This document shows positions 4,197 through 63,375 of a DNA stretch of 64,000 bases, piece by piece. Position numbers and translations under genes: made by a program. Numbering within the stretch: position 1 is the first letter of the stretch; each line of letters opens with the position of its first letter. The stretch is from Escherichia coli (GTDB lineage Bacteria; Pseudomonadota; Gammaproteobacteria; Enterobacterales; Enterobacteriaceae), in the NCBI RefSeq assembly GCF_044324875.1, contig NZ_CP172188.1. One strand, given 5' to 3'. The notes below the pieces were generated by a model. It was not told the origin of the DNA. It searched no databases and saw nothing but the letters and a program-made list of their open reading frames with translations.

Positions 4197-4301
4197 AATA
4201 CTGACTGTTGCGCCCTGGCATTATCGTGGGGTATATTTCTACGGCACCTTAGAAAAACGGGTGCCGGGATTGGAACCCCGGATAATGCAAAAGGCGACAC
4301 A

Positions 4302-4323
4302 GACGCCGAAAGCGTCTTTTCTT
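4302..4323 (+). terminator. rho-independent terminator candidate
   Basis: gacgc-cgaaa-gcgtc hairpin followed by ttttctt. Confidence 0.5.
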
Positions 4324-4329
4324 GTGTCA

Positions 4330-4508
4330 TGCCATCGCACAGCCATACGTAGCGTTTAGCTCAGAGATCAATGGTAGTGCTGGCTGGGCTGCCGAAAGGC
4401 AGGCCGGTTCCCTTTTGCGCCGGTAGTTCCAACCCAGTCAGTGCTACCGCCATTGAGATTGGAACCTCACGCGGTAGCTCCTTAAATTAGCAAAAGGAGG
4501 CTGCCAAT
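4330..4508 (+). promoter_or_regulatory. structured leader of antirepressor module A (differs from the leaders of modules B/C/D)
   Basis: Hairpins ctgcc-gaaa-ggcag (~4388-4401) and gttccaa...ttggaac (~4415-4458); AGGAGG before the ATG at 4509. Confidence 0.3.
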
Positions 4509-4724
4509 ATGGCTACTATCCCTACCCCAACTCATTCTGAATTTATCTGGCGTTTCTATTCCTGCCAAAAACACCTGTATATCTGCGTCATGGCTGCAAC
4601 CGAAGCAGAAGCTCGTTCATACCTTCCTGAAGAACCCTGCATTTTTGCCGCACGCTTCACTCTTGATGCGATGGAGATCCTCAATTACTGGAATCTGCCA
4701 ATGAACTGCGTGGAGGTGCACTGA
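4509..4724 (+). CDS. small protein upstream of the antirepressor (Icd-position ORF, module A)
   Basis: 71 aa; stop overlaps the ATG of the next gene (TGATG); paralogous to 28238-28462, 38110-38325 and 63376-63600. Confidence 0.6.
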   Translation: MATIPTPTHSEFIWRFYSCQKHLYICVMAATEAEARSYLPEEPCIFAARFTLDAMEILNYWNLPMNCVEVH

Positions 4725-5665
4725 TGAATCTGTCCATCTCTCAAAAAGCGACAATGACCAGCATTGAGATCGCGGAACTGGTAGGAAGTCGCCAAGATAG
4801 TGTGAAGAGAACTATCGAAACACTGGCTAAAAAGAGTGTGATCCAATTTCCACAATCTGTGGAAATTGAAAATAAACAATCAGTTGGCCCTCGTCGATTT
4901 TCCAAGGCTTACATCTTTGAAGGCGAACAAGGCAAGCGCGATAGTATCATTGTCGTCGCACAGCTCTCTCCGGAATTCACCGCCCGGCTGGTGGACCGCT
5001 GGCGCGAACTGGAGAATGCCAGGGGACCGTTAAAATCAAAAGCCGAAATCCTGGCTGAAATGGCGCAAATGCATCTTGAGCATGAACGCCGGATCAACGC
5101 CGTAAATGCCCAGGTAGCCGAGGTATCAGCACAAGTATCGATGGTCGCTGAAACACTCGAGCAAATAAAGAAAGGCAATATGCCGGAAGGCTACATTGGC
5201 TACCGCCAGCTGGCGGCGAAATGCGGCCTGACTGAAGCCAAATGTCGCAACCTGGTTAACGCTTACCGGATACCCACTGATACGCATGAGTTTTTGACTC
5301 CCGACGGTTTGCTTGCGCGACGCTCAATTGTGGCCCTGGCCCCCTTCCGGAAAGCCTTTAAGCAGGTTATGTCGGAGGCAGAACCACGCAACAAACGCTG
5401 GTATCATCCAAAGATGGGGATGTTTCAGGCAATCCACCATCCTGTGCCTGAAAGTCCAAAGGCAAACCTGTCGTTGCATACCGCCAGAGAGAGGATTAAA
5501 ACAGGGTATGCAATCGTATGCCGTCGAGCATCTTGGCCTGAAGGTGTATGGGTATGGCCCGAAGGTGGATCACGAAAGCACTGGCGCACTATCCGGGATG
5601 GGAAAATCCATGCGATTGATTTAGCTCCAGAGGATGTTGTTGCTACGGACTGGATTGTTAGTTAA
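4724..5665 (+). CDS. phage antirepressor-type protein (Rha-like N-terminal domain plus conserved C-terminal domain), module A
   Basis: 313 aa; N-terminus ...MTSIEIAELVGSRQDSVKRTIETL... resembles the Rha regulatory domain; C-terminal ~180 aa nearly identical to the module B and C proteins. Confidence 0.6.
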   Translation: MNLSISQKATMTSIEIAELVGSRQDSVKRTIETLAKKSVIQFPQSVEIENKQSVGPRRFSKAYIFEGEQGKRDSIIVVAQLSPEFTARLVDRWRELENARGPLKSKAEILAEMAQMHLEHERRINAVNAQVAEVSAQVSMVAETLEQIKKGNMPEGYIGYRQLAAKCGLTEAKCRNLVNAYRIPTDTHEFLTPDGLLARRSIVALAPFRKAFKQVMSEAEPRNKRWYHPKMGMFQAIHHPVPESPKANLSLHTARERIKTGYAIVCRRASWPEGVWVWPEGGSRKHWRTIRDGKIHAIDLAPEDVVATDWIVS

Positions 5666-5673
5666 TTACTGTT

Positions 5674-5695
5674 GCCCCGGCCTGTCCGGGGCTTT
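5674..5695 (+). terminator. conserved hairpin / terminator after the antirepressor gene
   Basis: ccccgg-cctgt-ccgggg followed by cttt; the same element follows modules B and C. Confidence 0.5.
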
Positions 5696-5724
5696 AACTA
5701 CTAAATAACCGGATTCTCCGCACG

Positions 5725-6009
5725 ATGAAGAAAATAGATTTCACTTACTCTGCTGCCACAATCCAGCGACGTTTCAGTCTCATAAGGGAAGTGGAACTAT
5801 CAAAAAACTGGTATCAAATTCTACTGGATGAAGAGTTTTCACTGATGGTTATAGCAGAAAAATTGGCTATGCCGAATGACCGGCACAAGGTCATAGCCAG
5901 CCTGGATCTGGTGACAAACAGATACTGGGAATCCGAGGAACTACTTGAAGTTGGCTTGATACGCGAGATGATAGAACAGGCTGTTCCCCTCCACTTACAG
6001 CAACCATAA
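5725..6009 (+). CDS. hypothetical protein (94 aa)
   Basis: ORF at the start of an AT-rich segment; no recognisable motif. Confidence 0.4.
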   Translation: MKKIDFTYSAATIQRRFSLIREVELSKNWYQILLDEEFSLMVIAEKLAMPNDRHKVIASLDLVTNRYWESEELLEVGLIREMIEQAVPLHLQQP

Positions 6010-6145
6010 TTGAAAGGTCTTAACGATAGTCTGCCACGAATAGTTACTTTCACTGCCTAAAGTTATTTAATTGCATTACAAAGTGTAAATTAGTAACATT
6101 AGAATCTCACACAGCACTATAACTATATGTTTTTTATGTAAAAGG

Positions 6146-6505
6146 ATGATAATCGTGGCTACTAAAATTAAACTTGAAAACCCTCAAACTGGCGAATCAA
6201 TCACCGGTTTTTATGGTTTTTCCTGGACTACATTCTTGTTTGGTGCTTTTCCAGCTTTGTTCAGGAAAGACTTTATAACTTTTATTGGGGTATTCGTAGT
6301 GATGCTGATACTGGCATTCCTCACAGCCGGAATTGGCCCGTGGATTGCCTCATTTATCTGGGCGTTCATGTATAATAAATATTTCACCGTAAATAAGATA
6401 AAACAAGGCTTCATTTTTGCTGGTTCTCACACAGAAAATGAGTTGGCTGCTAGCAAGCTAGGATTGTCATTAAATCAAAACAACTGCAAAACTATTACCG
6501 AGTAA
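6146..6505 (+). CDS. small inner-membrane protein (two hydrophobic segments)
   Basis: 119 aa; hydrophobic stretches FSWTTFLFGAFPALF and FIGVFVVMLILAFLTAGIGPWIASFIWAF; alternative GTG start at 6155 has better Shine-Dalgarno spacing. Confidence 0.45.
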   Translation: MIIVATKIKLENPQTGESITGFYGFSWTTFLFGAFPALFRKDFITFIGVFVVMLILAFLTAGIGPWIASFIWAFMYNKYFTVNKIKQGFIFAGSHTENELAASKLGLSLNQNNCKTITE

Positions 6506-6545
6506 TAGCCAAAAAGCAGGCTTAATAGTAAGCCTGCTATGTCAA

Positions 6546-7367
6546 TCACGAATCTCTCTGACAATTCAGAAACATAAACGCCCGCTTGTCTGTTAAATCC
6601 GTAACATAATACTCTCTCATGCCTGTAGGTTTTATTCTACGAGCATATACAAACTTATGAACTGGTTGTTTTTCCCCATAACTTACATCAGTCCTAAATT
6701 CATCAACCACGCTACCATCTTTTTCGACTTCCTTCCTCACCAGCTTATTTTCTAATGCTGGCTTTAATTCGTCCATGCCACTAAAAGCATCCTGGCCTGT
6801 ACTATTGCCTCGATTTCCGCGCGGCAAATCCCAGGAGAAATAAGTGCCATAGTCAGTAATCACACGATCCCAGACTCCGGTATCCCCCATATAGTTAGAG
6901 CGCTTTCCATTGTAGGTTACAGCCACTTTACAGGAGTACGTTTCTTCATTCCCTCCAGCCTTACTCGCTGTGGTTGCAGGGATATTTTGGATAGATGCGC
7001 TTACGTCATCTTGCGTTAATTCCTCAACTGGAGCAAATTCATATATGGGTGTGCCGAGGCTATTTAAATATAACTTATATCTAACCCTAAGCGCACTTCC
7101 ATCTGAGAATTCATACGTTCCCAGGCATTGGAGCTTATTTTTTTCTCTTATCTCATTGATCTGATAATAAGCATCAATTACAGAGATTGCTTCCTGATCG
7201 TCCTTCAGCAGTTCATTATAATCATCAATTAACATCTGTCTGGTTTTAGGGGCATTGCAGTCAATTTTGCTAAAATCATAAGCAAAGGCAAATGTGGGAA
7301 CAGAGAGAGCAACAACAGTAGCAAGTATTGTTGAGGAACATCTTTTTCCATTTTTTATAAAAAACAT
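6546..7367 (-). CDS. secreted / periplasmic protein of unknown function
   Basis: Start chosen at MFFIKNGKRCSSTILATVVALSVPTFAFA (signal-peptide-like, GGAG 8 nt upstream); the ORF track extends to 7430; AT-rich. Confidence 0.5.
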   Translation of the reverse strand: MFFIKNGKRCSSTILATVVALSVPTFAFAYDFSKIDCNAPKTRQMLIDDYNELLKDDQEAISVIDAYYQINEIREKNKLQCLGTYEFSDGSALRVRYKLYLNSLGTPIYEFAPVEELTQDDVSASIQNIPATTASKAGGNEETYSCKVAVTYNGKRSNYMGDTGVWDRVITDYGTYFSWDLPRGNRGNSTGQDAFSGMDELKPALENKLVRKEVEKDGSVVDEFRTDVSYGEKQPVHKFVYARRIKPTGMREYYVTDLTDKRAFMFLNCQRDS

Positions 7368-7607
7368 TTCATTAACTCCATACTTTACCATCTTAGCCGC
7401 GAGCGCGGTCCCTAAAACCATTAACTTCACTGCACCGTTCCTTCATGCAATCAAAATGACTTTTATGTTATAAAAATAATCAGCCAAATCAACATGATTT
7501 AGGCCAAATGCGTATTCCGCTCTATTCGATCACGGATTGGCATCGAAGTCCGATCAGCGATTCGCATCCATTCGATCAACCGGGAACTTAACTTTTTCTA
7601 CCGCTTT

Positions 7608-8363
7608 TTAACGCGTTTTTTCGCTGCTTTCCACTACCGGGGGATTTTTCCTCAGTGACTCTCCCTGAAGGACCACTCGGTGTGAGTTATGTACCAGTCT
7701 GTCCAGGATGGCATCTGCTGTTGTTGGGTTCTCCATCAGACCATGCCATTTATCTACCGGGAACTGGCTTACCACTATCGTGCTGCTTTGTCCGTAACGA
7801 TCCTCTATGAGCTCCAGAAGGTCATTACACTGGGCGTTACTTAACTGTTCCAGCCCCAGATCGTCCAGGATTAGAACCTGTATTTTTTGCAACTGTTTCA
7901 GATATTTCAGCCAGCTGCCATCAACACGTCCCTGAGCCAGTTGTTCCAGTAATCGCCCGGTTCTACAGTACCGGACGCTGTGTTTCTGTCGACATGCCTG
8001 TTCGCCCAGCGCATTGGCTATCCAGCTCTTGCCACATCCTGTCGGACCGGTTATCAGCAGGTTTTTCCTGTGGGTTATGTAGTGGCCGTTCAGCAGTTCT
8101 CTCATCTGTTCAGCCCGCAGACCTCTTGAGGCCGGATAGCGCAGCCCTTCCGGTGTTGCCTGGTATTTCAGGCCGGCATTTTTTCTCAACCGTGCCACAC
8201 GGCTGTTTTCCCTGCTCAGAAGCTCGTCATCAACCAGCAGCGTCAGCCTTTCCTCGAACGACAGTTCGTCGTAGGTCTGAGGCGTTTCCCGCTGCCGTAT
8301 CAGGCTCCCGGCCATCGCCGGGAGTTTCAGTTGGGTCAGTTTGTTTAACAGGTTATCACTCAT
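7608..8363 (-). CDS. istB: IS21-family transposition helper ATPase IstB
   Basis: Walker A GPTGCGKS, DExx-like LILDDLG; start set at MSDNLL with AAGGAA Shine-Dalgarno; the ORF track extends upstream to 8606. Confidence 0.85.
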   Translation of the reverse strand: MSDNLLNKLTQLKLPAMAGSLIRQRETPQTYDELSFEERLTLLVDDELLSRENSRVARLRKNAGLKYQATPEGLRYPASRGLRAEQMRELLNGHYITHRKNLLITGPTGCGKSWIANALGEQACRQKHSVRYCRTGRLLEQLAQGRVDGSWLKYLKQLQKIQVLILDDLGLEQLSNAQCNDLLELIEDRYGQSSTIVVSQFPVDKWHGLMENPTTADAILDRLVHNSHRVVLQGESLRKNPPVVESSEKTR

Positions 8364-8379
8364 ACTGTTGTTCCTTCTG

Positions 8380-9915
8380 TCAGTGGTAGTAGCCCGGACC
8401 ACGCAGGTTTTCATGCTCTGAAGCATATGCCGGATGTTGTTCGCCCTGGCGGGATAATGGAAGCTCCAGGTTCTCCCGATGGTGACGCAGCAGATTGTCG
8501 ATAAAGCGTCTGTCAGGGGCGTTATAGTGCAGGGCAACGTAACAGGCCTTTTCCAGCCGTTCCGGGCCGTATTTTTTCTGAAGTGCCAGCAGCCCCAGAA
8601 CTGCACGATAAGCCAGTTCCGGATGGGGTTTTGCCTTCAGCATGGATTCAACCACCCGGCCTGTGGACGGGCCCGTACGTTTTCCCTGCTCGATCAGGCG
8701 TTCCGGTGTCCATGTCCCGTGCTGCCGGTGGCGCTCTGGCATGTGAAGCGGATTGGTTGTGTGTTTATATTCATGTGTGCTGCGCGGATGTTGCGCCACA
8801 CACTGCCCCTTGTGCCAGAGCTGTACCACCGACTGCCCCGCCTTCAGTGACAGACGCTGACCGACCAGTTCGTGTGGAACGGAGTACCAGTGACGGGCAT
8901 ATTCAACGTGGTAGTCAGGGCCAACCTTCACAGCTTTGTATTCCGTGTATTCATAAGGTGCCAGAGGCAGCGGAGAGAGTGCTGGCGCATCCAGTATGCG
9001 GAAGCGTTCTGCACGGGTTTGATTGCCGTACCCCTTCATTGGCCGGTTATTCATGTCTGTCAGTAACTCCCTAAGGCGCGCATTCAGCGCCCTGAGCGTG
9101 TGGAAGGTTTCATTACGGATGCGGGCAAGAAGCCATCGTTCAACGATGAGGACGCCGTTTTCTGCTTTTGGTTTATCTTTAGGTTTGCGTGGTCGGGCCG
9201 GGATGATAACCGTGCCATAGTGCTCAGCCAGTGCCTGATAACTGTCGTTGATGACAGGCTCATATCGATCGGCCTTTTTCACTGCGCTTCTGAGGTTATC
9301 GGGGATGAGCAGCTTCGGTACGCCGCCCAGGAAGGTCAGGCAACGGCTGTGGGCATTTAACCATGACATCATGTCCTGACCTTCGCACGCTTCAACGTAG
9401 GTATAGTTGGACGCCCCCATTACGGCCACGAAGATTGCCACGCGGCGTATCTCACCGGTGTCCGGATTAATAACAGGAACCGTAGGACCACAGAAGTCGA
9501 TAAAAAGCTTTTCGCCGGCACGATGCTCCTGGCGCATGGAGAGACGTCGCGTTTTTTTCCACTCCCGGTAGCAACGGCAGAAGTGCGAGTATCCCATCGC
9601 TTTGTTACCCGCCTGTGCCTTGTATTCCATCCACAACAGTTGCCGCGTCACACCTGGTTTTCTCATTTCCGTATCGAAGTACAACATGTCAGGCATTACA
9701 AGCTCTGATGCAAAGGTGTCTTTGGGCGGAAAAATGAGTTTCTCCAGCGTGTCATGGGATATATCAGCAGGTAATGGCCATGACAGAGAAGAGGCTTTGA
9801 AGCGGGCAAGAACCTCAAAAACGGTTGAGGCGCTGATGTGTAACGTCAGTCCGATACAACGGTTAGTCAGCTTCTTGTCGAACTTGAGCTGAAGGATCTT
9901 AAAACAGGTTTCCAT
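8380..9915 (-). CDS. istA: IS21-family transposase IstA
   Basis: ~511 aa from METCF... (AGGAG Shine-Dalgarno); N-terminal HTH and a DDE-type core; the ORF track extends to 10026. Confidence 0.85.
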   Translation of the reverse strand: METCFKILQLKFDKKLTNRCIGLTLHISASTVFEVLARFKASSLSWPLPADISHDTLEKLIFPPKDTFASELVMPDMLYFDTEMRKPGVTRQLLWMEYKAQAGNKAMGYSHFCRCYREWKKTRRLSMRQEHRAGEKLFIDFCGPTVPVINPDTGEIRRVAIFVAVMGASNYTYVEACEGQDMMSWLNAHSRCLTFLGGVPKLLIPDNLRSAVKKADRYEPVINDSYQALAEHYGTVIIPARPRKPKDKPKAENGVLIVERWLLARIRNETFHTLRALNARLRELLTDMNNRPMKGYGNQTRAERFRILDAPALSPLPLAPYEYTEYKAVKVGPDYHVEYARHWYSVPHELVGQRLSLKAGQSVVQLWHKGQCVAQHPRSTHEYKHTTNPLHMPERHRQHGTWTPERLIEQGKRTGPSTGRVVESMLKAKPHPELAYRAVLGLLALQKKYGPERLEKACYVALHYNAPDRRFIDNLLRHHRENLELPLSRQGEQHPAYASEHENLRGPGYYH

Positions 9916-27961: not shown

Positions 27962-27990
27962 TTGATCTTCCATGTTTTCAGGCTTATATT
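27962..27990 (+). promoter_or_regulatory. sigma70-like promoter of module B
   Basis: TTGATC - 17 bp - TATATT; identical sequence in module D and, reverse-complemented, in module C. Confidence 0.5.
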
Positions 27991-27996
27991 CACGCC

Positions 27997-28237
27997 GTTG
28001 CAGCAAATTCTGCGACCGGGTTTAGCAGCCTGAATGTACATGCGGACAACCGCAGATATCCGATATTGCGGTATTTTTGTGTCCGTAAAACCATGTTACG
28101 CCCGAATTATGGTGGGGCGTGATGGGGAGGCTTCGGCCTGCTGGTTTCATGTACGCCAGTCTGCTAACCCCGTCACGTCCTGCCACCCGTTTAGCAGCGG
28201 GTAGCAGGTTGTTAAACCTGTACATGAGGCCGTAACT
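27997..28237 (+). ncRNA. structured leader with an embedded c4-like antisense regulator and two target sites (module B)
   Basis: Elements TTAGCAG/GTACATG at 28022-28042 and 28191-28226 (the second abuts the GAGG Shine-Dalgarno) are complementary to CATGTAC/CTGCTAA at 28148-28167; the complementarity is kept by compensatory changes in modules C and D. Confidence 0.5.
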
Positions 28238-38325: not shown

Positions 38326-38566
38326 AGTTACGGCCTCATGTACAGGTTTAACAACCTGCTACCCGCTGTCAAACAGGTGGCAGGGCGTGACAGGGTTGAC
38401 AGACTGGCGTACATGAAACCAGCAGGCCGAAGCCTCCCCATCACGCCCCACCATAATTCGGGCGTAACGTGGTTTACGGACACAAAAATACCGCAATATC
38501 GGAAATCTGCGGATGTCCGCATGTACATTCAGGCTGTCAAACCTGGTCGCAGAATTTGCTACGACG
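38326..38566 (-). ncRNA. structured leader with a c4-like antisense regulator (module C)
   Basis: Minus-strand elements TTGACAG/GTACATG (targets) and CATGTAC/CTGTCAA (antisense) in the same arrangement as module B. Confidence 0.5.
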
Positions 38567-38571
38567 GCGTG

Positions 38572-38600
38572 AATATAAGCCTGAACATCTGGAAGATCAA
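38572..38600 (-). promoter_or_regulatory. sigma70-like promoter of module C
   Basis: Reverse complement of TTGATC-17-TATATT. Confidence 0.5.
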
Positions 38601-47925: not shown

Positions 47926-48372
47926 ATGGCTGAAAATTTAAAGGCAAGAGATGGTAACCGCCTGTATAAGGCGCAATTGCTTTCCTACTATTATTCACGC
48001 CGCGCTGAGTCGGCGATCGGCAAAGGTGCGCGTTTTGTTATCTCTAAGGCGTATTGGTGCAAATCTAGTCTGGTAACTGCTAATGGTGCAGGAGGCTGGA
48101 ATATAGCGGACATTCCACTCGATTTTAAATTGAGTAACGCTCAACAGTTTGCTGTGTCCGATCTGATATTGTCCAGTGTGGATGGGATTATCACTATCAA
48201 TGCAGCCTTCCCTCAAGAAAGAATGCCGGATAACACGCCTTACGACTTTAACACGCTTGTGCTTGTGGATGCTGAGGAACAGGCTTTTGCTGTGCTTTGC
48301 ACCCAGCAAGACACCCTCTATAAAGGTAAACGTTACAGTATTCTCATGACAATCGAGCAAGTTGAGGGTTGA
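47926..48372 (+). CDS. hypothetical tail protein
   Basis: 148 aa; stop overlaps the tail-fibre start. Confidence 0.35.
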   Translation: MAENLKARDGNRLYKAQLLSYYYSRRAESAIGKGARFVISKAYWCKSSLVTANGAGGWNIADIPLDFKLSNAQQFAVSDLILSSVDGIITINAAFPQERMPDNTPYDFNTLVLVDAEEQAFAVLCTQQDTLYKGKRYSILMTIEQVEG

Positions 48373-51257
48373 TTATGGGTGCTGATAAAACGAACAACAT
48401 AATGACACTATCCTCTGGTGTCTCACAGCCGTTGCTTGCTGATGTTCAATATTTCGAACTCTATAGTAGTTCGGCTCTTAACAGAAAACTTAAAAATATT
48501 GTTTTGCCGGGCTTTTACTGTGGATTTGAACCGGTTCCCGGCACAGGGTTGAGTGTCCGTATAACTTCTGAAAACTCAGAAGGTAAAGGGGCTGCTTCAG
48601 TAGATGTAAATAATGTTCAGATATCCGTTCAGCAAATAGAAGATGTGACTGTCTCGGTAAAGGCAGGGGCTACCAACATTATTGTGCTGGAAGCCAATTT
48701 TGAACATGGTGTAAAAACGACACAGGTAGATAGCGCATCTTCTGTCAGTGCTGCAAGAATTTACGCGCGTACGGACAATACTATTGGGCAGAATCAAATT
48801 GAATTATGTCGAGTTATCGTGCCTAGCGGCGCAACGGCTGTGACTAAAGAAATGATTGTGCTTAAATACCGGGTTAACCGTGCTGTTGGTGTCGAATTCT
48901 CTAATGAAATAAGCAGTACAGAAGAAAGAAAAGCGGCTACACCTCTGGCTGTCAAAACTCTCCATGATTTGGTTGATACAAAAGCCCCGATCAACAGCCC
49001 GAATCTGACAGGAACGCCAACAACACCAACAGCGCCACAGGGGACTAATAATACCCAGATCGCAAGCACGGCTTTCGTTATGGCCGCGATTGCCGCACTT
49101 GTAGATTCGTCACCTGATGCACTTAACACTCTGAACGAACTGGCCGCCGCGCTTGGTAATGATCCGAACTTTTCCGCGACAGTGACTCGCCTGATTGGAG
49201 AAAAAGTTGCCAAAGATGGCGACACCATGACAGGTAAACTTAATCTGCCGCAGACCTCTGCATTCGGCATCAATACCAACAACAGACTGGGGGGGAACTC
49301 TCTGACGCTGGGCGATCACGATACCGGAATTAAACAGGAAGGAGACGGCGTATTGTCCGTGTTCGCCAACGGCCAGCGTGTGTTCCTTTTCACGGAAAGA
49401 AGTATTACCTCATTAAAAGAGCTTCTGATAGGGGATGCACGTTATAGCACCGGTGGTGATGTGTATGGCAGTCAGTGGGGAGACGGTTGGTTGAGTTCCT
49501 GGTTAAGTGCTCGCTTTGCAGAGTGTGCCAACGCCAGCCATAACCACCCTTGGAGCCAGATTACCGACGTACCAGCAGCCAGCCTCACTCAGAGCGGCAT
49601 TGTACAACTTAGTAGTGCCATCAACAGCACTTCTGAAACATTAGCTGCAACTCCAAAAGCGGTTAAAGCTGCATACGATCTAGCAGCCGGAAAGGCACCA
49701 TCCAGTCATACACACCCCTGGAATCAGATCACTGGTGTGCCAACAGCTTCATTGACAGCGAAAGGCATCACTCAGCTCAGTAGTGCTACTAACAGCACGT
49801 CTGAAGTGCTGGCCGCCACACCAAAAGCTGTCAAGGCTGCATATGACCTGGCTAACGGGAAGTATACAGCCCAGGATGCAACCACGACACAAAAAGGGAT
49901 AGTTCAGCTCAGTAGCGACACCAACAGCACTTCTGAAACATTAGCTGCAACTCCAAAAGCGGTTAAAGCTGCATACGATCTAGCAGCCGGAAAGGCACCA
50001 TCCAGTCATACACACCCCTGGAATCAGATCACTGGTGTGCCAACAGCTTCATTGACAGCGAAAGGCATCACTCAGCTCAGTAGTGCTACTAACAGCACGT
50101 CTGAAGTGCTGGCCGCTACACCGAAAGCGGTTAAAGCTGCATACGATCTAGCAGCCGGAAAGGCACCATCCAATCATATACATCCCTGGAATCAGATCAC
50201 TGGTGTGCCAACAGCTTCATTGACAGCGAAAGGCATCACTCAGCTCAGTAGTGCCACTAACAGCACGTCTGAAGTGCTGGCCGCTACACCGAAAGCGGTT
50301 AAAGCTGCATACGATCTAGCAGCCGGAAAGGCACCATCCAGTCATACACACCCCTGGAATCAGATCACTGGTGTGCCAACAGCTTCATTGACAGCGAAAG
50401 GCATCACTCAGCTCAGTAGTGCTACTAACAGCACGTCTGAAGTGCTGGCCGCTACACCGAAAGCGGTTAAAGCTGCATACGATCTAGCAGCCGGAAAGGC
50501 ACCATCCAATCATATACATCCCTGGAATCAGATCACTGGTGTGCCAACAGCTTCATTGACAGCGAAAGGCATCACTCAGCTCAGTAGTGCCACTAACAGC
50601 ACGTCTGAAGTGCTGGCCGCTACACCGAAAGCGGTTAAAGCTGCATACGATCTAGCAGCCGGAAAGGCACCATCCAATCATATACATCCCTGGAATCAGA
50701 TCACTGGTGTGCCAACAGCTTCATTGACAGCGAAAGGCATCACTCAGCTCAGTAGTGCCACTAACAGCACGTCTGAAGTGCTGGCCGCTACACCGAAAGC
50801 TGTCAAGGCTGCATACGATCTGGCAAACGGAAAACAACCGGCAGATGCCACGCTCACTGCTCTGGCAGGACTTGCCACTGCAGCAGATCGGTTGCCTTAT
50901 TTTACCGGAGCAGACCGCGCAGCGCTGACAACCCTTACAGCTATTGGTCGCGCTATTATCGCTAAGGGCAGTATAAAAGATGTCCTCAATTACCTTGGTT
51001 TAGGAGAAGGCTCGGCGCTACCCGTTGGTGTGCCTGTTCCATGGCCCACCGCCACACCGCCAGCAGGCTGGTTAAAGTGCGACGGGCGCGCCTTTACAAA
51101 AGAACAATATCCTGTTCTGGCCAGAGTCTACCCGACCCTCCGTCTTCCCGATTTACGCGGTGAGTTTATCCGTGGATGGGACGACGGGCGAAAAGTTGAT
51201 ACAGGGCGCGATTGCTTTCACGGCAAGGGGTACAAGTTTTTCTCATTACGGAGGTAA
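48369..51257 (+). CDS. tail fibre protein with variable C-terminus encoded in the invertible segment
   Basis: 962 aa; about seven tandem ~60-aa repeats containing ATPKAVKAAYDLA...H.HPW.QITGVP (classic fibre repeat); the last ~85 aa lie inside the invertible segment. Confidence 0.7.
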   Translation: MIMGADKTNNIMTLSSGVSQPLLADVQYFELYSSSALNRKLKNIVLPGFYCGFEPVPGTGLSVRITSENSEGKGAASVDVNNVQISVQQIEDVTVSVKAGATNIIVLEANFEHGVKTTQVDSASSVSAARIYARTDNTIGQNQIELCRVIVPSGATAVTKEMIVLKYRVNRAVGVEFSNEISSTEERKAATPLAVKTLHDLVDTKAPINSPNLTGTPTTPTAPQGTNNTQIASTAFVMAAIAALVDSSPDALNTLNELAAALGNDPNFSATVTRLIGEKVAKDGDTMTGKLNLPQTSAFGINTNNRLGGNSLTLGDHDTGIKQEGDGVLSVFANGQRVFLFTERSITSLKELLIGDARYSTGGDVYGSQWGDGWLSSWLSARFAECANASHNHPWSQITDVPAASLTQSGIVQLSSAINSTSETLAATPKAVKAAYDLAAGKAPSSHTHPWNQITGVPTASLTAKGITQLSSATNSTSEVLAATPKAVKAAYDLANGKYTAQDATTTQKGIVQLSSDTNSTSETLAATPKAVKAAYDLAAGKAPSSHTHPWNQITGVPTASLTAKGITQLSSATNSTSEVLAATPKAVKAAYDLAAGKAPSNHIHPWNQITGVPTASLTAKGITQLSSATNSTSEVLAATPKAVKAAYDLAAGKAPSSHTHPWNQITGVPTASLTAKGITQLSSATNSTSEVLAATPKAVKAAYDLAAGKAPSNHIHPWNQITGVPTASLTAKGITQLSSATNSTSEVLAATPKAVKAAYDLAAGKAPSNHIHPWNQITGVPTASLTAKGITQLSSATNSTSEVLAATPKAVKAAYDLANGKQPADATLTALAGLATAADRLPYFTGADRAALTTLTAIGRAIIAKGSIKDVLNYLGLGEGSALPVGVPVPWPTATPPAGWLKCDGRAFTKEQYPVLARVYPTLRLPDLRGEFIRGWDDGRKVDTGRDCFHGKGYKFFSLRR
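49540..50830 (+). repeat. tandem ~180-bp in-frame repeats in the tail-fibre gene
   Basis: Near-identical units with few substitutions (for example SSHTHPW versus SNHIHPW). Confidence 0.8.
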
Positions 51258-53036
51258 TTTCGACATTGGGTCTGGTTATTCAATCAATAACTACGACCAA
51301 TAGTTGTTTCTAACAACCAAGATTTTCCCGACCTTCATGAGGGCCTTTAACGAGGTGATGGGGTTAACATGTAACCATTCGTCCTGGTAACATTGTTTAA
51401 TTATATGGTATGCAGGCTATAAACGTTGGTTTAGGAGAAGCGGCGCTATGCGTTGGTGTGCCTGTTCAGTGGCCCCCGCCACACCGCCATTGCAGGCTTA
51501 ATTAAATTGTGAGGGCGCGTTTACAAAAGAACAATATCAGTTCTGGCCAGAAAACCCGACCCTCCGCTTCCCGATTTAGCGGTGCGATATCCGTGGATCA
51601 CTATGACGAGACGAAAGGTTGATACACGGGCGTGCCTCTTTGGAGTTTCGCCCTTGGGACTATCGTATCCGGTTTTGATGCGCCGATGCATACCGGAGAT
51701 TTCAGGTTACGTGGTCGGCTGCCACACAAACGGATGGTGACGCATTTAACCTGATCACCTGGGGGTATAAATGGCAAAAAGTGGATATTTGATGCATCCC
51801 AACCGGTGCACAAAGATATGACTGGCGGACTTACCACCAGCAAAACAGCCTGCCACAATATGGGATTTAACTATATCGTGAAGGCGGCGTATACCGTTAC
51901 TGAACGGCATAGAGCCGCAGTGGCGCTGGCCAGCTGCAACGCCAGAAACCTTGTGATATCCAGGCGTTCAGCTCGTCGATATAATCCAGCACGGCGGGCA
52001 GTTTTGCCGTTTCTTCCAGTTTCAGACTGCGACCTGCCCGCCGTTTGGGTTGATAGGTCGACGGCTTCACGCCTGGATCCACCCGGCACTGGCGTTGCAG
52101 TTGGCAAGTCTCCAGCTCTGCGGCTCTATGCCGGCTCAGTATCACGCCGCCCACGATTACCGTTCCAGGTATCCCATGGTGTGGCAGGCTGTTTTGTGGT
52201 GGTGTCCGCCGGTAATCACCCGGTTGAGGTGCATCAGAACGGGGTTCCCGTTTTCCGTTTATACCGTCTCCCGCGGTGATTAGGGTTACATGCGTCCCAA
52301 ATCCGTTCAGTGTGGCAGTCCGAAACCACGTAACCCGATATCCTCCGGTATGCATTATCATCACGAACCGGAGTACGATAGTCCCAAGGGCGAGATACTG
52401 AAAGTAGCGCACGCCCGGTATCAACCTTTCGTCCGTCATATCCACGGATAAACTCACCGCGTAAATCGGGAAGACGGATCGGTTAGACTCTGGCCAGAAC
52501 AGGATATTGTTCTTTTGTAAACGCGCCCTCACAATGTAACCAGCCTGCTACGGCGGTGTGACGGTGATACCCTTCGCATACAGGCTTCTGATAGAGGTCA
52601 GAATAGTAGCCTGCATACCATTGTCTGACATTACCACGATGTTACGAGGATCGCTGAATGTTGTCCCGTCCGGCATTTTGAAGGCCCTCACGAAGGTCTG
52701 TAATGGAATCTTCATTGTTGAATCCCATGCCGACTATCCCCGAGGTTCCCGTAGTGTCCTGGTTATAATAATCCAGCATTGCTGTTCTTAACAGCGTTGC
52801 CCCTTGTGCGGACAGCAACTTACGTCCTGTATCAACTTTGCGCCCGTCGTCCCATCCACGGATAAACTCACCGCGTAAATCGGGAAGACGGAGGGTCGGG
52901 TAGGCTCTGGCCAGAACAGGATATTGTTCTTTTGTAAAGGCGCGCCCGTCGCACTTTAACCAGCCTGCTGGCGGTGTGGCGGTGGGCCACGGAACAGGCA
53001 CACCAACGGGTAGCGCCGAGCCTTCTCCTAAACCAA
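50995..53036. other. invertible tail-fibre segment (Cin/Gin-type) with ~210-bp inverted repeats plus two degenerate internal repeat copies
   Basis: IR-L 50995-51205 and IR-R 52826-53036 are near-identical inverted copies beginning with TTGGTTTAGGAGAAGG; degenerate copies at ~51425-51640 (direct) and ~52440-52570 (inverted, partial); invertase gene starts 67 bp beyond IR-R. Confidence 0.6.
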
Positions 53037-53102
53037 CGTTTATCTCTCAAATCCTCCCCACATTATCTCAGTACTTTAACCACTCAAAAGGGAGTATTTT
53101 TA

Positions 53103-53675
53103 ATGCTGATTGGCTACATACGTGTGTCAACAAATGACCAAAACACAGATTTGCAACGCAATGCATTAATGTGCGCAGGATGTGAACAGATTTTTGAGGA
53201 CAAAATGAGCGGAACCAAGTCGGAACGACCAGGCCTGAAACGCGCTTTAAAGTGCCTTAAAAGAGGGGATACATTGGTGGTCTGGAAGCTGGATCGGTTG
53301 GGTAGAAGAATGAAACACCTCATTGCTCTCACAGAAGAGCTACGCGCAAAAGGTGTCAATTTTCGCAGTCTGACGGATTCAATCGATACCAGCACTCCGA
53401 TGGGAAGGTTCTTTTTTCATATGATGGGTGCACTGGCAGAAATGGAGCGTGAACTGATAGTTGAGCGCACGCTGGCAGGACTGGCTGCTGCGCGATCACA
53501 AGGAAGAGTTGGAGGACGTCGCCCGAAACTGACGAAGGAGCAGCATGAGCAGATCGCAAGATTGCTCCAGAAAGGGTATGACAGAAAGCGGCTGGCAATT
53601 ATCTATGATATTGGACTGTCAACGATCTACCGCTATCACCCTGTTGGGACTGTCATAACGCAACCTGAAATGTAA
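53103..53675 (+). CDS. serine DNA invertase (Hin/Gin/Cin/Pin family)
   Basis: MLIGYIRVSTNDQNTDLQ..., RPGLKRAL, LVVWKLDRLGR, C-terminal HTH; 190 aa. Confidence 0.85.
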   Translation: MLIGYIRVSTNDQNTDLQRNALMCAGCEQIFEDKMSGTKSERPGLKRALKCLKRGDTLVVWKLDRLGRRMKHLIALTEELRAKGVNFRSLTDSIDTSTPMGRFFFHMMGALAEMERELIVERTLAGLAAARSQGRVGGRRPKLTKEQHEQIARLLQKGYDRKRLAIIYDIGLSTIYRYHPVGTVITQPEM

Positions 53676-63100: not shown

Positions 63101-63129
63101 TTGATCTTCCATGTTTTCAGGCTTATATT
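63101..63129 (+). promoter_or_regulatory. sigma70-like promoter of module D
   Basis: TTGATC-17-TATATT, identical to module B. Confidence 0.5.
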
Positions 63130-63135
63130 CATGCC

Positions 63136-63375
63136 GTCGTAGCAAATTCTGCGACCAGGTTTGACAGCCTGAATGTTAGTGCGGACAACCGCAGATTTCC
63201 GATATTGCGGTATTTTTGTGTCCGTAAACCGCGTTACGCCCGAATTATGGTGGGGCGTGATGGGGAGGCTTCGGCCTGCTGGTTTCACTAACGCCAGTCT
63301 GTCAACCCTGTCACGTCCTGCCACCTGTTTGACAGCGGGTAGCAGGTTGTTAAACCTGTTAGTGAGGCCGTAACT
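63136..63375 (+). ncRNA. structured leader with a c4-like antisense regulator (module D)
   Basis: TTGACAG/GTTAGTG at 63161-63181 and 63329-63364; complementary CACTAAC/CTGTCAA at 63286-63305. Confidence 0.5.

Follow-up and report, generated by a model that had tools for sequence, protein, structure and literature searches.

A D6-like, P1-family phage-plasmid of Escherichia coli bears the repeat array described here, which lies in a 64,000-nt stretch of DNA (hereafter, the window). The array sits within gene S, which as assembled spans positions 48369–51257 on the plus strand and, according to the open reading frame list, encodes a protein of 962 aa. Nine stretches of this protein match the Pfam family Phage_fiber_2 (PF03406; 514.3 bits against a cut-off of 22, E = 1.8e-158) and a Collar domain (PF07484) follows at its C-terminus. 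Because of these domains, and because the gene order agrees with that around phage D6 gene 35—the homologue of P1 gene S—we annotated S as a tail-fibre gene. Its product is laid out as a D6-like N-terminus, a repeat shaft, and a Collar-type tip, the frame of which is lost after the residues DTGR, at about position 51208. The first 653 nt of S are 97.5% identical to D6 gene 35; the match to D6 is confined to this segment, and D6 itself has no array. As in the fibre operons of P1, p15B, and D6, the order in the window is R–S–invertible segment–invertase–lydA–lydB, with a crossover site located within S. In P1 and p15B, Sandmeier, Iida and Arber (1992, J Bacteriol 174:3936) reportedly described amplified sequences that form mosaics of partly related repeats within the constant regions of the fibre genes.

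As assembled, the array occupies positions 49521–50828, in frame within S, and is composed of seven 168-bp (56-aa) units and one 132-bp (44-aa) unit, all on the plus strand. A previous, sequence-only reading had placed an in-frame tandem array at this site in the tail-fibre gene, and both Tandem Repeats Finder (49904–50833; 5.5 copies, 95% matches, score 1671) and Pfam confirmed it, with the span now refined. That reading had also proposed a period of ~180 bp (60 aa), a figure that derived from averaging the seven 168-bp units with the single 132-bp one and has to be replaced by 168 bp (56 aa). Common to all units is a 32-aa core, I[TV]QLSSxTNSTSExLAATPKAVKAAYDLAx. When the linker ahead of this core is 12 aa long, a 44-aa unit results; when it is 24 aa long and carries an HxHPW motif, the unit measures 56 aa. 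The motif is present in every 168-bp unit, starting at nt 49539, 49707, 50007, 50175, 50343, 50511, and 50679.

From 5′ to 3′, the array opens with U0 (49521–49688; ECANASHNHPW…), a diverged 56-aa unit that shares 64–69% nucleotide identity with the other long units. It is followed by U1 (49689–49856; allele L0, with SSHTHPW), another 56-aa unit whose nucleotide sequence recurs unchanged in five related loci (L002, L003, L004, L005, and L014), and by U2 (49857–49988; allele s1), the 44-aa unit, which is devoid of histidines (GKYTAQDATTTQKG…). Next come U3 and U4 (49989–50324), a dimer of 56-aa units formed by alleles L2 (SSHTHPW) and L3 (SNHIHPW), and U5 and U6 (50325–50660), an exact 336-bp copy of that dimer (100% nucleotide identity; U3 = U5, U4 = U6). 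The final 56-aa unit, U7 (50661–50828; allele L4, SNHIHPW, ending in …DLAN), is nucleotide-identical in L003, L009, L010, and L014. Both motif variants noted beforehand, SSHTHPW and SNHIHPW, are found in the array. The claim that the repeats are near-identical holds for six units (U1 and U3–U7; 91–100% nucleotide identity among themselves) but not for U0. Upstream of the array lies an isolated, N-proximal Phage_fiber_2 core (48900–48986, plus strand; …EERKAATPLAVKTLHDL…), from which the next core is 237 aa downstream; in the relatives L003, L007, L010, and L014, this core is joined directly onto the array.

Downstream of the array, the constant part of S ends at a first crossover site (50990–51009, plus strand; TTACCTTGGTTTAGGAGAAG, codons …LNYLGLGEG…). 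A second site (51421–51440, plus strand) has the same orientation, and a third (53022–53041, minus strand) is inverted and adjoins a gene for a 190-aa serine DNA invertase of the Cin/Min/Pin type (53103–53675, plus strand; Pfam Resolvase, 2.2e-50; HTH_7, 1.3e-12). These three matches in the window compare with 0.01 expected by chance. The segment is bounded by inverted-repeat arms of 217 nt (50992–51208 and 52823–53039) that are 98% complementary. Three crossover sites combined with small Collar-type cassettes are also a feature of Min, whereas P1 and D6 possess two large Sv/U cassettes.

Inside the invertible segment (51209–52700) lie four cassettes for fibre tips and one gene for tail-fibre assembly, all of them frameshifted, and we found no intact alternative C-terminal cassette or tail-fibre assembly gene within the window's segment. 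Alignment of the segment to a collinear relative required 109 gap openings in 1.6 kb. Judged from these sequence features, the interior most probably represents a consensus of low quality or chimeric origin, and with the consensus garbled in this way, the stop codon that truncates S is probably an assembly artefact. A base-by-base mix of the two orientations was rejected as the source, since mismatches equalled the mirrored base at ~27%, which is the chance level. A tile-wise test, however, showed positions 52409–52528 to follow the mirror orientation, and the two tests together argue for a mosaic rather than a base-by-base mixture. The frameshifts in this segment should not be taken as gene decay.

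Comparison with related plasmids put the array in context. The same alleles (L0, s1, L2, L3, and L4) occur, base-identical, in independent plasmid assemblies, yet their number and order differ: two units were counted at locus L009, five in pF719-4, seven in the window, eight in pF374-2, and 14 in pGF4-B. Copy number therefore does vary among isolates, as the sequence-only reading had expected. The allele string of the window reads L0 s1 L2 L3 L2 L3 L4 and that of pF374-2 reads …L0 s1 L2 L3 L4, such that the window differs from the 3′ part of the pF374-2 array by one extra L2 L3 dimer, with the remaining units base-identical. Together with the exactness of the 336-bp duplication (U3U4 = U5U6), this supports the earlier suggestion of a recent expansion. 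A second case of a two-unit (336-bp) duplication is seen in L007 (L14 L3 L14 L3), and pGF4-B harbors a 972-nt duplication of six units and encodes an S protein of 1176 aa. Among the best 120 homologous proteins or clusters, the unit number ranges from 1 to 13 and the length from 652 to 1117 aa; 44- and 56-aa units alternate strictly in most, and runs of at least three consecutive 56-aa units occur in only three of the 120. Matches to the array region were present in 896 of 5,426 E. coli genomes. The exact arrangement of the window had no match among the 5,426 complete E. coli genomes, PLSDB plasmids, or IMG/VR viruses, the latter searched for the L2-L3-L2 arrangement with a gapped pattern. We found nothing specific in the literature on repeat number or fibre length in P1/D6-like plasmids.

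That no public record matches the arrangement could mean that the unit number, and the identity of U3U4 and U5U6, arose during assembly or polishing, with the array expanded or collapsed or with multi-mapping reads having equalised the units. Shifted by 336 nt, the sequence matches itself exactly over 385 nt, from which it follows that positions 49956–50676 are perfectly 336-periodic; short reads cannot resolve such a 721-nt tract, and the array is indeed the assembly hazard it had been suspected to be. The garbled invertible segment—with its many gap openings just 400 bp downstream—points in the same direction. On the other hand, the whole array is in frame, its units are base-identical to those in several independent assemblies, and their order is that of pF374-2 bar one extra dimer. 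Similar block duplications in L007 and pGF4-B, and neighbouring errors of the indel type, which suggest long reads able to span the 1.3-kb array, speak against an artefact as well, and we consider this explanation quite unlikely. Annotators and assemblers would do well to distrust the length given for gene S in a P1- or D6-like phage-plasmid when no long reads cross the array.

Another process that could keep the units alike is gene conversion still at work within the array (concerted evolution), as opposed to recent duplication or deletion of blocks. It would account for the long units being all identical in L002 and L005 (100%) when the difference between lineages amounts to 6–11%. Moreover, among the 16 long-unit alleles compared, differences are mostly synonymous (H7, H9, P10, and W11 are invariant), and selection at the protein level alone would be insufficient to produce identity of the DNA. 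However, related arrays differ by insertions or deletions of whole units or blocks of identical alleles, as unequal crossing-over predicts, and arrays retain divergent units next to identical ones, namely U0, U2, and the two allele groups in L008. Mean within-array identity of the long units extends from 87% (L008) to 100% (L002 and L005), arguing that homogenisation is not uniform. Gene conversion as the main cause seems unlikely to us.

In our view, and with good confidence, the array is best explained as the modular shaft of a trimeric gene S fibre, the units of which are gained and lost by recombination or slippage. Given the length of the units, their common reading frame, and their near-identity in DNA sequence, unequal recombination or slippage can alter their number without breaking the frame. 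The comparisons between plasmids suggest that unequal homologous recombination or replication slippage adds or removes single units or blocks and is the likely cause of the copy-number change, in which case the 336-bp two-unit duplication of the window would be one very recent such event.

PF03406 is known from lambda Stf, P2 gpH, P1 S, Mu S, and collagen-like fibres of EHEC prophages, and each unit of the array corresponds to one such module, with the Collar domain at the C-terminus of the same protein; the module has been reported in lambda Stf and EHEC prophage fibres (PMC3368898). Compared with these fibres, the window array stands out by its eight tandem copies, the DNA of which is up to 100% identical; most are of the 56-aa HxHPW variant, and five consecutive 56-aa units are rare. 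In the wider family (2593 clusters), a spacing of 44 aa is the most frequent, and 28 of 29 spacings of 56 aa carry HxH. A 100-aa unit pair used as query matched 400 phage records, among them lambda, P1, P2-like phages, and Stx phages; the P2-like matches begin past the HxHPW motif, at query residue 18.

In T4 gp37, R-type pyocin fibres, and P2 gpV, three HxH motifs together bind one Fe in an octahedral His6 site (PMC6116203). The window shares the conserved HxH (one per 56-aa unit) with the T4 gp37 needle, the shaft of the R1/R2 pyocin fibre, and the P2 gpV apex, but differs from them in that its spacing is regular, at 56 or 100 aa. A Protein Data Bank search with the 380-aa array revealed no sequence similarity to solved HxH fibres; the sole match was to Mu S residues 110–150, covering one motif without HxH, and the Mu S chains (5yvq, 9ki1) contain a single copy of this motif. 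An AlphaFold2 monomer model of four units in the order L-s-L-L, built from a 43-sequence alignment, was too poor for fold comparison (pLDDT 62, pTM 0.30) and gave a weak hint of a beta-hairpin and an 11–14-residue helix per core. Given this single match and the poor model, shaft geometry and metal binding rest on analogy.

By that analogy, the number of units would set the length of the fibre shaft, and in a homotrimer each HxH would place six histidines around a buried metal (Fe), an arrangement known from other trimeric phage fibres. A change in unit number is likely to affect both the length of the shaft and how many His6 metal sites are possible. Changing fibre length through module number is ordinary and long known in phages—that length is adjustable through repeats has been argued before (PMC6116203)—and the array belongs to this familiar class rather than to a new type of system. 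On this reading, receptor specificity comes not from the repeats but from the downstream Collar-type tip, swapped by the serine invertase.

Long perfect repeats in a host-range gene, next to an invertase that shows the locus to be built for variation, might also bring to mind a programmed contingency locus that switches the fibre on and off, or its host range, at high frequency. With specificity residing in the Collar tip instead of the repeats, this appears highly improbable. A frame-shifting version of such a locus was rejected, as each length (132, 168, 336, or 972 nt) is divisible by three and every variant is in frame.

Returning to the modular shaft, a more far-reaching set of ideas can be entertained jointly, although we doubt that the set holds. 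Here, the HxH-bearing 56-aa module would be a self-contained, 'metal-clamped' segment of the shaft, which the D6-like lineage might amplify in place of the usual 44/56 alternation. Each fibre could then carry Fe sites at even intervals, up to seven or more of them, and the amplified modules might tune its reach through O-antigen or capsule. As part of the same set, near-identical cores common to P1-like plasmids and chromosomal prophages may act as recombination joints that move receptor-binding tips between unrelated phages.

For practical purposes, the relatives offer a natural series of fibres with 2 to 14 modules built from identical parts, usable for assessing the effects of shaft length and HxH on adsorption and host range. 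The same series could inform efforts to engineer P1-based delivery vectors with fibres of a chosen length. Among those found, D6-like plasmids with the array came mostly from poultry and food isolates.

The repeats lie within a 962-codon open reading frame on the plus strand (48369–51257), the tail-fibre gene S, whose product matches Phage_fiber_2 (PF03406) nine times (Pfam, E = 1.8e-158) and, at residues 887–934, has a Collar domain (PF07484). Tandem Repeats Finder reported a single array (49904–50833; period 168, 5.5 copies, 95% matches, score 1671). Anchoring unit boundaries on the TPKAVK core of every repeat placed cores at residues 190, 427, 483, 527, 583, 639, 695, 751, and 807, that is, at spacings of 237, 56, 44, 56, 56, 56, 56, 56 residues. 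Successive array units are U0 (49521–49688, ECANASHNHPW…), U1 (49689–49856, SSHTHPW), U2 (49857–49988), U3 (49989–50156, SSHTHPW), U4 (50157–50324, SNHIHPW), U5 (50325–50492, SSHTHPW), U6 (50493–50660, SNHIHPW), and U7 (50661–50828, SNHIHPW), all of 56 aa except U2, which has 44 aa and no histidines. The sequence-only reading had proposed about seven near-identical units of ~180 bp (60 aa). Its count agrees with the seven HxHPW motifs; the true period is 168 bp (56 aa), and the 132-bp unit had been missed. Near-identity held for U1 and U3–U7 (91–100% at the nucleotide level) but not for U0, which shares only 64–69% with them. U3 equals U5 and U4 equals U6 exactly, and an exact match of 385 nt at a 336-nt offset makes 49956–50676 perfectly periodic.

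Units of both lengths share a 32-aa core, I[TV]QLSSxTNSTSExLAATPKAVKAAYDLAx, and differ solely in the linker preceding it, which comprises 12 aa in the short unit (YTAQDATTTQKG) and 24 aa in the long one (APSxHxHPWNQITGVPTASLTAKG). In a broader survey of the family covering 2593 clusters (50% identity, E ≤ 0.001), 44 aa was the commonest spacing (93 cases) and HxH was present in 28 of the 29 spacings of 56 aa; by sequence, the latter spacing is specifically the histidine-bearing variant. Nine arrays yielded 16 distinct long-unit alleles, whose variable codons were mostly synonymous, with H7, H9, P10, and W11 invariant. Fibre repeats of phages and pyocins form a trimeric shaft of repeat-adjustable length, and HxH motifs from three chains build buried octahedral His6-Fe sites in T4 gp37, R1/R2 pyocin fibres, and P2 gpV (PMC6116203). 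By analogy, each 56-aa unit would extend the shaft by one segment and add a metal site, and the window's fibre would hold seven such sites. Sequence matches in the Protein Data Bank comprised only one Phage_fiber_2 motif, in Mu fibre S, and a poor AlphaFold monomer model (pLDDT 62, pTM 0.30) suggests a beta-hairpin and a short helix per core.

For comparison with related plasmids, exact nucleotide alleles were named from the window (L0 = U1, s1 = U2, L2 = U3 = U5, L3 = U4 = U6, L4 = U7; L, long unit with HxHPW; s, short unit), with [237] marking the 237 aa that separate the isolated first core from the array. The window thereby reads [237] L0 s1 L2 L3 L2 L3 L4; pF374-2 (L003), s10 L3 L3 L0 s1 L2 L3 L4; pGF4-B (L014, S = 1176 aa), sx1 L3 L3 L0 s1 L2 L3 L3 L3 L0 s1 L2 L3 L4; pF719-4 (L010), s10 L22 L22 L3 L4; and five further records, [237] L21 L4 (L009), [237] L0 s1 L0 s1 L0 s9 (L002), [237] L0 s1 L0 s1 L11 (L004), [237] L0 s1 L0 s12 s1 L0 s9 (L005), and s10 L13 L14 L3 L14 L3 L15 (L007). 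Related arrays thus differ by gain or loss of whole units or unit blocks composed of base-identical alleles, always in frame: a single L2-L3 dimer (336 bp) is all that separates the window from the 3′ part of the pF374-2 array, pGF4-B, with 14 units, differs from pF374-2 by a six-unit duplication (972 bp), and L007 has a two-unit duplication of its own. The earlier expectation that copy number varies between isolates was borne out, the same base-identical alleles recurring in different numbers across related records. Among the best 120 protein-cluster representatives, proteins of 652–1117 aa carried 1–13 units, which usually alternate strictly between 44 and 56 aa and so form a super-repeat of 100 aa; just 3 of these 120 had at least three consecutive 56-aa units, and the window's run of five is therefore unusual. 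Its exact arrangement was absent from PLSDB, 5,426 complete E. coli genomes, and IMG/VR. The array differences would be explained by unequal homologous recombination, or by replication slippage, acting on direct repeats of at least 168 bp; gene conversion may also homogenise units, whose within-array mean identity ranged from 87% to 100% for long units. The first reading is confirmed with corrections, and its interpretation supported. Separately, in L003, L007, L010, and L014 the first core (residue 190) is joined in frame directly to the array, with loss of the 237-aa segment (cf. window 48939–49688) that the window, L001, L002, L004, L005, and L009 keep; this fusion looks like recombination between repeat cores.

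The first 653 nt of gene S are 97.5% identical to phage D6 gene 35, annotated as a long tail fibre similar to P1 gene S. Gene order is as in D6 (sit, pmgA, bplA, gene 16, R, S, invertible segment, invertase, lydA, lydB), and the 23 kb upstream share 95–99% identity with non-mobilizable E. coli plasmids of ~92 kb. Together, these likenesses assign the window to a D6-like phage-plasmid of the P1 family whose tail-fibre gene, judged from sequence, carries the array in its constant part. A 1992 analysis of P1 and p15B fibre genes reportedly found that the constant parts contain repeats that are partly related and have been amplified. The Phage_fiber_2 module is catalogued in Pfam and was described in lambda Stf and EHEC prophage fibres (PMC3368898); the 100-aa unit pair has hits in 400 phage records, among them those of P2-like phages, lambda, P1, and Stx phages, and gene S has matches in 1229 of 5,426 E. 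coli genomes. The module itself is old knowledge, and the array is best seen as a previously unrecorded arrangement within a familiar class rather than as a novel system. Within gene S, 48980–49173 (nt 612–805) is ~85% identical in DNA to tail-fibre gene H of phage P2 and relatives, a predicted mosaic patch common to unrelated phages, and the repeat region also shares 95% identity with chromosomal prophage fibres, e.g. in NZ_CP098187.1.

Three AAACGTTGGTTTAGGAGAAG-like crossover sites, at the end of the gene S constant part (50990–51009, +), at 51421–51440 (+), and at 53022–53041 (−), together with a serine invertase (Resolvase/HTH_7; 53103–53675), are predicted to form a Min/Pin-like multiple inversion system swapping small Collar-domain fibre tips of ~140 aa; phage D6, by contrast, has an annotated Cin system with two cassettes. 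The 217-nt arms of the segment (50992–51208 and 52823–53039) align ungapped with L009 at 97–98% identity, whereas the interior (51209–52822, 1614 nt), though collinear with that of L009 (1615 nt), aligns at only 82% identity and is broken by 109 gap openings, besides 140 mismatches. Compared with intact homologues, none of the four fibre-tip cassettes keeps its reading frame, nor does the tail-fibre assembly gene (51209–52700); the segment is closer to its own reverse complement (70%) than the L009 segment is to its own (52%), and 52409–52528 fits the mirror-image orientation (score 56.5/60 versus 11.5 forward). The segment probably represents a low-quality or chimeric consensus, produced by molecules that differed in inversion state; a test for base-by-base mixing of orientations was negative. 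If the consensus is faulty in this way, the truncating stop of the fibre at 51257 is probably an artefact, and the fibre would in reality carry a tip like …DTGRDLLSRQDGTSFSHYGG…NIAFNYIVRAA, of the type seen in proteins P0030, P0101, and P0111. Every unit of the repeat array, by contrast, is base-identical to other assemblies, arguing that its sequence is sound, even should the assembled copy number be inexact. Cassettes of pSOI121-1 (L013, NZ_AP035758.1; locus 4507–8834) are 'frameshifted' in the same manner, and RefSeq annotates its fibre gene, five fibre-tip cassettes, and assembly gene as frameshifted or incomplete, so this consensus fault may be common in public assemblies of related plasmids.

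Rfam additionally placed four copies of C4 antisense RNA in the 64 kb (4367–4454, 28105–28190, and 63243–63328, +; 38373–38458, −), three of them adjoined by a1/b1 target elements (27984–28036, 38526–38578, and 63123–63175), and an isrK-like sRNA at 4244–4322; P1 is described as carrying just one c4, within immI.
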